NCBI GenBank assembly: GCA_963825175.1
Contig: CAWGSA010000002.1
Location: 2,339,044 to 2,403,043, forward strand
DNA length: 64,000 nt
From: an uncultured Acidobacteriota bacterium
GTDB lineage: Bacteria; Acidobacteriota; Thermoanaerobaculia; UBA5066; Gp7-AA6
Direction: 5' to 3'
Shown: positions 45,011 through 56,510 of the stretch, piece after piece
Layout: every line of letters starts with the position of its first letter
Position numbering within the stretch: position 1 is the stretch's first letter
Notes under the pieces: model-generated
Databases searched by the model: none
Seen by the model: only the letters and a program-made list of their open reading frames with translations
What the model was told of the DNA's origin: nothing
Program-made: the position numbers and the translations under genes

Positions 45011-45181
45011 TCAGGTGATGATGACGTCGTTCATCTTGATGATCAGGTACTCGTGCTGTTCCTTGCCGGCCTTGCGCCCGCCCCCGCCTCGGACGTTCTT
45101 CGCTCTCTTCGCGCTCAATGTCTTCTCGGGCAGATTCCGCAGACCCCGGGACTTCGACTTCGACGCCTTCTTCTGGCTCAT
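45011..45181 (-). CDS. Small leader + Hcp-like core peptide A (56 aa; not in ORF track)
   Basis: Hand translation: MSQKKASKSKSRGLRNLPEKTLSAKRAKNVRGG-GGRKAGKEQHEYLIIKMNDVIIT; AAGGGAG RBS. Confidence 0.85.
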   Translation of the reverse strand: MSQKKASKSKSRGLRNLPEKTLSAKRAKNVRGGGGRKAGKEQHEYLIIKMNDVIIT

Positions 45182-45216
45182 GACGCGTTCTCCCTTCTCT
45201 GTTGAGAATCCTCGTA

Positions 45217-45231
45217 GCAGTCCTGGTGCCA
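45217..45231 (-). promoter_or_regulatory. Sigma-54 (-24/-12) promoter for peptide A
   Basis: Minus strand reads TGGCAC-CAGGA-CTGC. Confidence 0.7.
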
Positions 45232-45321
45232 GCCGTCGGAGACGCCGGAACGTCTCCGACGATCTTTCTTCTCCTCCGACAGAGAGTGCCCTGCGCGCCC
45301 CCTTTATCCCACCCGTGGTGA

Positions 45322-45453
45322 TCTCTCTCCGCCAAGAGGCGCCATCGGGAGGCGACGAAGTCGGTTTCCCGCGCCAAGGCCATAACCATCAAGGGCGGTT
45401 CGCGCTTCCTCAGGCTCGACGGCATCAAGCGCGAGAGCTGCGACAAGAGGCCG
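45322..45453 (+). pseudogene. Relic leader + Hcp-N-terminus-like peptide E
   Basis: Frame reads ..ATKSVSRAKAITIKGG-SRFLRLDGIKRESCDKR; no start codon after the stop at 45319. Confidence 0.55.
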
Positions 45454-45756
45454 ATGACGTCGCGGAGTTCAGGCCCCCTCGGAGATGACCCGACCGTCGG
45501 CCGGGCACAGGACGTCGAAGTCGACTGCCATCTCTTCGTCACTGTCACTGCGAAACGAGTGCGCCTGCCGACGTCGAGATCGGAAATATTCCGATCAGCC
45601 GTCCTTCCCTCGATGTTTCGCGCCGTGCCGCTCTTTGGGGGCCGTCAGCGGGTGCTAGATTTGGCCCCAGCCCGCGGGTGATCCCCGGTCGCAGACGACA
45701 ACCCGTGGATTCTCGGCCTCGCCGGCAGGTCCTTGACCAGTGGGAGGAGGCGGTTT

Positions 45757-55570: not shown

Positions 55571-55990
55571 ATGAAGCGAACCTACGTGCTGGCGGTGTGC
55601 CTTGGGACCCTGCCGGTGGTGACAGCCGCTCCCGCCCTCGCTTCTCAAGCCAGGGGGTCGAAGCCCGTTCCGGCCTCCGCGCCCGTGAGTCTTGTCTTCC
55701 GAGGGGCCGCGCCGGGATCCGGCGGGGTCGCGGCGCCGGTCTCGCCCGCGGCGGTTCCCTTTCATTCTTCGACGGAAAGCGGCGACTTGAATGAGGCCGA
55801 GCCTCCCGAGCACCGTATGCCTGCTCTTCCCGATCCCGCGAATCTCGAGCGGCCGCTCGCTCCCGCGGGGGCCAACGAGACCGATGACGGCGGCGCGCCG
55901 GGCGCGTCCGGTTTCCGCCGCCTGAGCGTCGCGGCGACGGCCGCGACGAACACGCGGGCAGCCAGAGGCACCATCGCATTTGGCCCGTCG
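55571..55990 (+). pseudogene. Probable 5' remnant of a secreted protein
   Basis: AGGAGG RBS and signal peptide MKRTYVLAVCLG; the downstream frame loses plausibility and runs antisense into peptides C/D. End approximate. Confidence 0.35.
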
Positions 55991-56130
55991 CCGGTGAGCC
56001 GGACATCACGCAGAGAGACGGACCGGCCGTGTCGTGAGAGCGCAGGCGCTCCCTCCACGCCGCAAATCGTTCGCGACATCGAGGCCGTCAACCGACGGTT
56101 CTTAGCCGTCGGCGGTTTGATTGTGCTGCG

Positions 56131-56286
56131 CTATCGGACGATGAGCTTGACGGTGTCGAGGTGCTTGCCCGTGGCGCACCCTTTGCCGCCCACGACTTCC
56201 GAGGCGTCCTTGACAGAAAGAGTCTTCACCGGAAGTTTCCCTATTCGCCGCGTCGCCCTCTTGTTCGTCGACTTCTTCTGGCTCAC
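56131..56286 (-). CDS. Small leader + Hcp-like core peptide D (51 aa)
   Basis: GTG start overlaps the stop of peptide C (GTGA): MSQKKSTNKRATRRIGKLPVKTLSVKDASEVVGG-KGCATGKHLDTVKLIVR. Confidence 0.85.
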   Translation of the reverse strand: MSQKKSTNKRATRRIGKLPVKTLSVKDASEVVGGKGCATGKHLDTVKLIVR

Positions 56287-56429
56287 GGCTTCTGCTGCGT
56301 GTACGTCCATTTGATTCTTCCGTAAGTGCCTGCCTTGACGCCCTCGGCGGTCTTGGCGTCGAGCGCTTTCGCCGGAAGATTCCTCATCGACTTGGCCGTC
56401 TTCGACTTCCTGGTCTTCTTCTTGTCCAT
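56283..56429 (-). CDS. Small leader + Hcp-like core peptide C (48 aa; not in ORF track)
   Basis: Hand translation: MDKKKTRKSKTAKSMRNLPAKALDAKTAEGVKAG-TYGRIKWTYTQQKP; AAGGAGG RBS. Confidence 0.85.
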   Translation of the reverse strand: MDKKKTRKSKTAKSMRNLPAKALDAKTAEGVKAGTYGRIKWTYTQQKP

Positions 56430-56495
56430 ACCGTCCTCCTTTTTGCTCTTTGAGCTGTCCTGAGTGCCTGCGGCTTCTGACCACCACCTCTGATC

Positions 56496-56510
56496 GCAAC
56501 CTCGGTGCCA
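56496..56510 (-). promoter_or_regulatory. Sigma-54 promoter for peptides C and D
   Basis: Minus strand reads TGGCAC-CGAGG-TTGC, identical to the site at 48554. Confidence 0.8.

Follow-up and report, generated by a model that had tools for sequence, protein, structure and literature searches.

Small double-glycine leader genes with Hcp-like cores in an uncultured Acidobacteriota bacterium

In many-precursor systems of peptides that are synthesised ribosomally and modified post-translationally (RiPPs), such as the prochlorosins and the NHLP and Nif11 leader families, one conserved leader is joined to hypervariable cores, and dozens of dispersed precursors with a common leader are served by a single processing and export locus. 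The genes described here are organised in a similar way. They include four small genes (A-D) and a relic (E) in a stretch of 64,000 nucleotides, hereafter the window, which covers positions 2339044-2403043 of contig C2 in the genome of an uncultured Acidobacteriota bacterium (labelled G000; 5.05-Mb assembly in four contigs, 99.3% complete). In the NHLP and Nif11 families the leader derives from a known protein, whereas here the cores do: they show residue-level homology to successive segments of Hcp (TssD; PF05638), the tube protein of type VI secretion systems (T6SS). In contrast to Hcp itself, these are partial segments fused to an export leader, in a genome where neither full-length Hcp nor TssC was found.

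The machinery is of a known kind, with double-glycine leaders and a peptidase-bearing ATP-binding cassette (ABC) exporter (PCAT) that carries HetC-like cyclic-nucleotide-binding (cNMP) domains; the cargo is not of a known kind. Leaders of PCAT substrates have hydrophobic residues at positions -12 and -7 and glycines at -2 and -1 (PMC6959990). The leader of the present family fits this recognition pattern, with a GG end and hydrophobic residues at -4, -7 and -12 as in PCAT1/CtA, ComA/ComC and the class II bacteriocins. Its exporter shares with those systems the C39, transmembrane and nucleotide-binding parts, the Cys, His and Asp residues and an HlyD partner. The differences lie in the strongly basic leader (net charge +4.5), Ala in place of Leu at -7, 45-53 dispersed precursors for one exporter, sigma-54 type promoters and structural-protein cores. 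HetC of Nostoc PCC 7120 is a PCAT with an N-terminal cyclic-nucleotide-binding domain, for which PMC10986499 proposes regulated peptide export. The present exporter likewise has cNMP-type domains ahead of C39 and ABC, but two of them, in another phylum and with other cargo. The preliminary description of the window knew of no account of such a system, and we too found none in Pfam, NCBIfam, source names, the ESM Atlas or the literature, supplementary files aside.

A genome-wide family with Hcp-like cores

Genes A-D very probably belong to a regulon of 45 or more small, dispersed genes that combine a basic double-glycine leader with a short core copying one or two secondary-structure elements of Hcp, the cores jointly tiling the whole of Hcp with overlaps. 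A hidden Markov model (HMM) of the leader, seeded with A-D and iterated over all six-frame open reading frames (ORFs), gave 45 members in G000 at E ≤ 1e-3. An independent profile search gave 53 leader matches, and at least one additional diverged member was spotted by eye. The modular family of leaders and short cores, first described from four genes and a relic, is therefore far bigger, with 45-53 genes in the genome. Among the 45 members, the leader is about 30 residues long and has a mean net charge of +4.5 across its last 20 residues. The Lys/Arg-rich leader ending in GG or AG is indeed shared, with GG in 43 of the 45 members and AG in C. Furthermore, V or I occupies position -4 in all 45, A occupies -7 in 39, L, V, I or M occupies -12 in 43, and L occupies -17 in all 45. 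Core length ranges from 9 to 59 residues, with a median of 24. A phmmer envelope hinted that the leader itself might be Hcp-derived; this was rejected, because the leader and Hcp profiles, compared by hhalign, gave a probability of 0.3%.

In the window, A, B, C and D are intact small ORFs on the minus strand with exactly the coordinates first assigned to them, D being read from a GTG. Gene A (45011-45181; 56 amino acids) joins the leader MSQKK...NVRGG to the core GGRKAGKEQHEYLIIKMNDVIIT, which aligns with positions 87-107 of our Hcp HMM (RKAG turn and strand beta5). It has the Shine-Dalgarno (SD) sequence gaagggag ahead of its start, and its ortholog in a genome of the same genus (G001) differs in the core at just 2 residues. 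Gene B (48317-48502; 61 amino acids) consists of the leader MDKKKTRKSKTVKSMKNLPQKAIDTKTAQGVRGG and the core SRAAKGGDTPTESVGFNYGKIEFKYTP, which covers Hcp positions 115-137 (beta6-beta7 hairpin). Gene C (56283-56429; 48 amino acids) has the core TYGRIKWTYTQQKP at positions 129-141 (beta7), behind a leader that ends in AG and is 76% identical to that of B. Gene D (56131-56286) has the leader VSQKKSTNKRATRRIGKLPVKTLSVKDASEVVGG and the core KGCATGKHLDTVKLIVR, at positions 72-87 (helix end and strand beta4). Its GTG start overlaps the TGA of gene C as GTGA, which suggests translational coupling, and is ambiguous because of an alternative in-frame ATG at 56310. Element E (45322-45453) lies on the plus strand, which had not been specified before, and consists of the leader remnant ...SRAKAITIKGG followed by SRFLRLDGIKRESCDK, at positions 6-20 (N-terminal strand). 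The open frame extends from 45322 to 45681. No ATG, GTG or TTG precedes the leader remnant, which reaches 6.4 bits with the leader HMM's C-terminal half. Since its leader is truncated and lacks a start codon, E is a relic, as proposed.

The cores were compared with an Hcp HMM built from 15 full-length Hcps of relatives, using 2250 shuffled cores (50 per core) as controls. In total, 29 of the 45 cores scored above the 99th percentile of the shuffles (1.5 bits), and they span positions 2-160 of the model. All five cores of the window exceeded the maximum of their own shuffles: core A reached 24.3 bits (maximum of its 50 shuffles 0.2), core B 17.1 bits (2.6), core C 4.7 bits (1.5), core D 7.4 bits (3.0) and core E 7.1 bits (2.5 among 200 shuffles). 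The tiling order in the preliminary description, with E N-terminal, D, A and B successive, and C overlapping B, agrees with the HMM positions. When the distinct cores of G000, G001 and the proteins of a global library were pooled, 118 of 222 scored above 1.5 bits.

The domain profile PF05638 recognised the peptides of the window only in part: B gave a match at profile positions 112-129 (E 0.1, 13.3 bits, below the cut-off of 23.5), while A, C and D gave none. An NCBIfam scan of the A-D peptides gave no match. Across the whole of G000, PF05638 had 14 matches, four of them over the cut-off. All were partial (e.g., 1-33, 38-82 and 58-94 of about 129 positions), and all 14 lay directly behind a Lys/Arg-rich leader ending in GG. 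None of these matches was a full-length Hcp, and no core spans more than about a third of the domain. Hence, in terms of domains, the peptides do not belong to the Hcp family.

Comparison with Hcp proteins gave a similar picture at the level of residues. One core matches the solved Hcp chains 7fcf, 8yun and 1y12 with E values between 2e-6 and 5e-4; a second one aligns with a solved Hcp chain over RKAGG...VIIT. The cores are 50-86% identical to one or other relative's Hcp over 6-24 residues. The best matches are scattered over the Hcps of 13 relatives, so that no single donor was identified. Identity in the same columns was 0.37 between cores and Hcps versus 0.43 between pairs of Hcps, a comparison subject to ascertainment because it takes just the 29 scoring cores. 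Core starts cluster at Hcp positions 2-4, 60-64, 85-87 and 125-126, and core ends at 85-88, 107-110, 136 and 161-162. These positions are strand and helix edges in a model of a relative's Hcp (predicted local distance difference test score 89.7), which suggests that each peptide corresponds to one or two modelled Hcp elements. A co-fold of residues 32-61 of B with a relative's Hcp in two copies, run without controls, scored 0.00 and is evidence neither way. The ESM Atlas neighbours of B are clusters of 'hypothetical proteins', one of them with PF05638 on 20% of its members, which we regard as a lead only.

Promoters, selection and growth of the family

Translation signals and promoters accompany the leader genes. 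SD-like GGAG or AAGG motifs precede most of the 39 assigned starts (list read by eye), and one family member in G000 has no start codon. Genes A, B and C each have TGGCAC-N6-TGC upstream, and these are the window's only three TGGCAC sites. The predicted sigma-54 type -24/-12 elements all lie on the minus strand: TGGCACCAGGACTGC at 45217-45231, 50 nt upstream of the A ATG; TGGCACCGAGGTTGC at 48554-48568, 66 nt upstream of the B ATG; and the same TGGCACCGAGGTTGC at 56496-56510, 81 nt upstream of the C ATG, where it probably also serves D. Genome-wide, the motif [TC]GGCA-N7-TGC has 306 sites in G000; it occurs 20-200 nt upstream of 16 of the 39 leader genes, compared with 27 of 3329 control genes from our own crude gene calling, an enrichment of about 50-fold. 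Of the 42 leader genes of G001, 15 have the motif, and its 16 sites at these loci precede leader genes in all but one case. The -24/-12 elements, the presence of rpoN in G000 and a sigma-54 activator gene adjoining the HlyD gene of the export module together define a predicted sigma-54 regulon.

A further element, GGTCTCT, recurs at a fixed distance. It is found on the minus strand at 48601-48607, 39 nt upstream of the -24 element of B, where it is part of a duplicated promoter module, and at 56543-56549, likewise 39 nt upstream of C's -24 element; the two copies align between the B and C loci. Exactly this spacing occurs in seven separate leader loci. Upstream of A, a perfect 11-bp inverted repeat at 45234-45261 (CGTCGGAGACG, a 6-nt gap, CGTCTCCGACG) abuts the -24 element on its upstream side. 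It was flagged by a terminator scan on the plus strand, with no gene end nearby, and may be a regulator-binding site.

Selection was estimated from 14 best pairs between G000 and G001 (at least 70% identity; one G001 gene used twice). The ratio of nonsynonymous to synonymous substitutions (dN/dS) was 0.24 in the leaders and 0.41 in the cores, at a dS of about 0.29. We also considered the genes as truncated pseudogenes of longer Hcp genes. This was rejected, because in the 450 nt past each of the 45 stops, read in three frames against the Hcp HMM, the sole hit above 6 bits was the next leader gene.

Genes B and C illustrate how the family may grow. By eye, the DNA of the two loci is about 85-90% identical over a stretch that begins about 70 nt upstream of the -24 element and includes the leader, and the similarity collapses abruptly after the GG codons. 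Core C resembles core B minus its first 17 codons (sequences read by eye). The identity of the B and C loci and the 39-nt spacing of GGTCTCT indicate that the duplicating unit comprises promoter, untranslated region (UTR) and leader, with cores changing by trimming or replacement. In a leader-DNA tree (about 87 nt, quick method; all 45 rows kept, 29 of them labelled), the Hcp-region label changed 13 times; 300 shuffles gave 17.8 changes on average and never fewer than 14. This is weak evidence that leader DNA and Hcp region are inherited together, as the tree is poorly resolved and kin share labels. A sub-family carries F-x-[SAV]-[VEA]-EHG after the GG, joined to Hcp positions of about 41-72, 89-108, 115-141 or 138-159 (library proteins P0002, P0022, P0046, P0064, P0081, P0083 and P0088, and G000 C2:2422072-2422272). 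Its cores resemble an Hcp that has lost internal parts, a pattern suggesting that cores also evolve by in-frame deletion.

The export module and its distribution

G000 has a single C39 peptidase, which lies within a 1109-residue PCAT with the domain order two cNMP domains, C39, ABC membrane domain and ABC ATPase. The peptidase carries the Q....DCG, H and D residues. The PCAT scores 400 bits against PCAT1 and 341 bits against ComA. Its nearest NCBIfam models, the HlyB-type TIGR01846 and the NHLP-type TIGR03796, are both under cut-off; the best equivalog-type match is NHLM_micro_ABC1 (TIGR03796), with 523 bits and a cut-off of 853. Downstream of the PCAT follow an HlyD-type adaptor, a receiver-less sigma-54 activator, and then leader genes interleaved with two genes for B12-dependent radical S-adenosylmethionine (SAM) enzymes. 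These two enzymes resemble ApyD, the B12 radical SAM methyltransferase that acts on the tyrosine C-beta in aminopyruvatide biosynthesis (bioRxiv 10.1101/2023.10.30.564719), with scores of 677 and 681 bits against NF050148, below the cut-off of 750. Their genes sit between leader genes at C1:178-186 kb and pertain to only a few precursors, not to A-D. Among the module proteins scanned, lanthionine synthetase and cyclodehydratase families had no match; neither did MNIO and P450 families among the scanned proteins of the exporter cluster.

The distribution of the family was studied in 41 genomes including G000, of which three unpublished ones (G011, G013 and G030) entered the absence tallies only, having neither leader match nor TssC, PCAT ortholog or Hcp; G013 was also included in the phylum-wide search below. 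Leader matches numbered 53 in G000, 41 in G001, 3 in G002, 7 in G004, 12 in G005, 10 in G006 and 1 each in G025 and G037, and none were found in the 33 other genomes of the order. In 400 other genomes of the phylum, the leader profile gave no matches at 1e-4, with 19 candidates scored per genome, a search that also missed the known weak match in G025. Full-length PCAT orthologs (66-94% identity) occur in five of the seven leader-positive relatives (G001, G004, G005, G006 and G025) and in none of the 33 leader-negative ones; there were no others among the 40 relatives. The two leader-positive relatives without a full-length PCAT are G002, which is 60% complete, and G037, which has one weak leader match. 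PCAT and leader genes share a contig in G001, G005, G006 and G025, while the PCAT contig of G004 has no leader match. The order of a gene for a 405-residue protein, PCAT, HlyD and sigma-54 activator is conserved in the relatives. The same module order is found in named Gemmatimonadaceae and Gemmatimonadales metagenome-assembled genomes (MAGs), where the PCATs are 59-67% identical.

Two observations concern individual proteins of the module. The 405-residue protein (C1:171077-172294 in G000; L010:5077-6291) always precedes the PCAT, also in the distant Gemmatimonadales MAGs. It has no Pfam family; TIGR04500, 'putative peptide maturation system protein', matches it faintly, with 29 bits where the cut-off is 180, and the protein may be a processing or chaperone partner. 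In the PCAT ortholog of G005 (C24:73998-77315; L091), the search read through four TGA codons; this gene may be broken, assembly-frameshifted or recoded.

The cores of the relatives are likewise pieces of Hcp, and the repertoires are not the same even within the genus. A leader-only profile matches 180 cluster representatives of the global library, nearly all of those listed being 40-75 residues long, and Hcp-like cores occur in 79 of the best 150 of the 180. When nine proteins from G000 and four from the G001 loci were left out, 69 of 137 leader homologs elsewhere had Hcp-like cores, among the matches listed. Together with the scores above the shuffled controls, this answers the refuting conditions set by the preliminary description mostly in its favour. 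No source calls the library members anything but 'hypothetical protein', and none of the best 150 of the 180 library matches has the leader fused to full-length Hcp.

TssC (PF05943), which alone was searched for among the T6SS core genes, had no match in G000. It was detected in 7 of the 41 genomes, and the six leader-rich ones (G000, G001, G002, G004, G005 and G006) are not among them. The preliminary description held that the window has no T6SS genes, and this agrees with the six ORFs scanned within 43235-59487, none of which belongs to a T6SS family; the scan covered those ORFs rather than the whole window. Full-length Hcp is found in relatives, including an orphan copy in G006. On contig C222 of that genome (L055:540-704 and 1486-1968), the orphan full-length Hcp has, about 800 bp upstream of it, a leader gene whose core is of the helix type, with an unrelated 203-residue ORF between them; TssC was not found in G006.

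The scanned ORFs beside A-D encode a Na/H exchanger, two Ser/Thr kinases, an immunoglobulin (Ig)-repeat protein, a Collar-domain protein and one protein without a family; none of them encodes a modifying enzyme. The two membrane Ser/Thr kinases (45733-48312 and 56704-59490, plus strand) flank B and C/D, one having a TPR-rich C-terminal part and the other PD40/TolB-like repeats. The 1780-residue Ig-repeat protein (49074-54416) contains nine He_PIG domains as well as Big_9 and cadherin-like domains, and directly after it comes a 77-residue ORF that is a lone Phage Tail Collar domain (54442-54675, plus strand; PF07484, E 1e-22). Adjacency to kinases was too weak to use: a kinase-like gene (51 in all) occurs within 500 nt of 5 of the 45 leader genes, compared with 1.7 expected (P about 0.03), C and D share a locus, and all cases fall within one region. 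Clustering of 115 flanking ORFs by blastp yielded just small groups of two or three as recurrent neighbours.

Possible functions of the peptides

The anatomy of the genes and their co-occurrence with the exporter point to a likely route by which the peptides are made. Sigma-54 promoters would drive the leader genes, probably through the activator of the export module. The C39 PCAT with its two cNMP-binding domains, together with HlyD, would then cleave the precursors after the GG and export peptides of about 10-40 residues. A few precursors of the exporter cluster would probably be C-methylated by the two ApyD-like B12 radical SAM enzymes.

Our tentative proposal for their function, drawn from sequence, is Hcp mimicry that interferes with the T6SS of rivals; the preliminary description had suggested poisons of tube assembly, decoys or mimic signals. 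Once mature, the peptides would interact with proteins of the Hcp fold or with binding partners of Hcp in competitors armed with a T6SS, and this interaction would disturb the assembly of the rivals' rings or tubes. The proposal draws on several results: Hcp is the sole detected donor, Hcp-conserved residues are kept in diverged paralogs, core boundaries follow structural elements, and the family has expanded only in genomes without detected TssC. If the peptides are mimics, the family could expand in lineages without a T6SS because there would be no self-poisoning there. A precedent of a kind is a designed peptide that mimics a T6SS subunit interface, blocks the contact of TssK with TssG and prevents T6SS assembly, according to PMC8406304. 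Both are short copies of a segment of a T6SS subunit, but the designed peptide is man-made, cyclic and aimed at the baseplate, whereas the present ones are natural, linear as far as known, copies of the tube protein and known from genes alone. A stronger version of the proposal, that the genes form a natural anti-T6SS countermeasure, is doubtful. In this version, a dominant-negative library of Hcp fragments, switched on via sigma-54 and a nucleotide-gated exporter, would enter attackers and jam ring or tube assembly as a new class of defence.

Several points weigh against mimicry. The peptides would have to enter the rival's cytoplasm, where the T6SS tube is assembled, and no uptake route is known. 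Sixteen of the 45 cores do not score as Hcp-like, and the shuffles control for composition only. The enrichment of the sigma-54 motif depends on a crudely called control set, and the filter of at least 70% identity biases dN downward. Moreover, many relatives in which no TssC was found also lack the leader family. Finally, the expectation that leaders elsewhere carry Hcp cores holds for about half of the listed library matches but not for the distant Gemmatimonadales MAGs, in which shorter related leaders mostly have tiny, basic, non-Hcp cores, only one being Hcp-like. These cores imply that the export system is generic and that the Hcp cores could be an accident of lineage.

This last point leads to the main rival explanation, a founder effect, which we consider rather unlikely. 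An ancestral fusion of leader and Hcp would have been duplicated and trimmed into ordinary double-glycine peptides (bacteriocins, amphipathic beta-peptides or signals), for which the Hcp ancestry is irrelevant. Besides the module and related leaders of the Gemmatimonadales MAGs, the non-Hcp-like cores of G000 speak for it, as do the promoter, UTR and leader common to B and C, with core C like a trimmed core B, and the more relaxed dN/dS of the cores than of the leaders. Yet such a history sits less easily with Hcp as the sole donor as far as detectable, with boundaries that follow Hcp structural elements, with Hcp-conserved residues retained in diverged paralogous cores nearly as well as between Hcps (the 0.37 versus 0.43 given above), and with the lack of a fusion of leader and full-length Hcp among the best 150 of the 180 library matches.

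The remaining explanations are less probable than Hcp mimicry. It is improbable that the pieces, once exported, come together extracellularly in an Hcp-like beta structure such as a ring, tube or fibre, and we know of no precedent for such split secretion. The set does cover every Hcp element with overlaps, the conservation matches the constraints of the Hcp fold, and PCATs carry unfolded cargo (PMC6959990). However, the fragments are redundant, their ragged and overlapping ends give no clean partition, and the repertoires differ between two species of one genus. Decoys that remain inside the producer are very improbable. The peptides would stay in its cytoplasm or periplasm and bind incoming Hcp, Hcp-loaded effectors or phage tail-tube proteins, with the leader serving for targeting or turnover. 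The Hcp likeness, the lack of detected TssC in producers and the Hcp fold, which is common to phage tail tubes, would fit such decoys, but the tight co-occurrence and synteny with a PCAT-HlyD exporter that has its catalytic residues, and the match of the leader to the PCAT recognition pattern, argue for export. That the genes are mere debris, either decaying pieces of an Hcp pseudogene or spurious ORFs in GC-rich DNA, is extremely unlikely: the relic E, the start-less member and the small size and missing annotation of the ORFs in every source checked are outweighed by the SD sites, the enriched sigma-54 motif, a dN/dS below 1 at the observed dS, clean gene ends with no downstream Hcp remnant, and joint conservation with the exporter across genera.

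Provided that production and export of the peptides take place, this would be the first case found of a peptide export system whose cargo consists systematically of fragments of a single structural protein, namely the one that forms the tube of Gram-negative bacteria's main contact-dependent weapon. For T6SS research, this offers the testable idea of natural fragments of Hcp that act as inhibitors or mimics. If the anti-T6SS reading were true, the family would represent an interbacterial defence of a new class and would provide T6SS inhibitors from nature. For RiPP and bacteriocin research, it would be a case of cores arising by trimming a protein behind a mobile module of promoter and leader, and for annotators it is a nameless family of more than 180 clusters. 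Even if the Hcp ancestry is incidental, about 50 dispersed peptide genes in a predicted sigma-54 regulon, served by one exporter with cNMP domains, are unusual.

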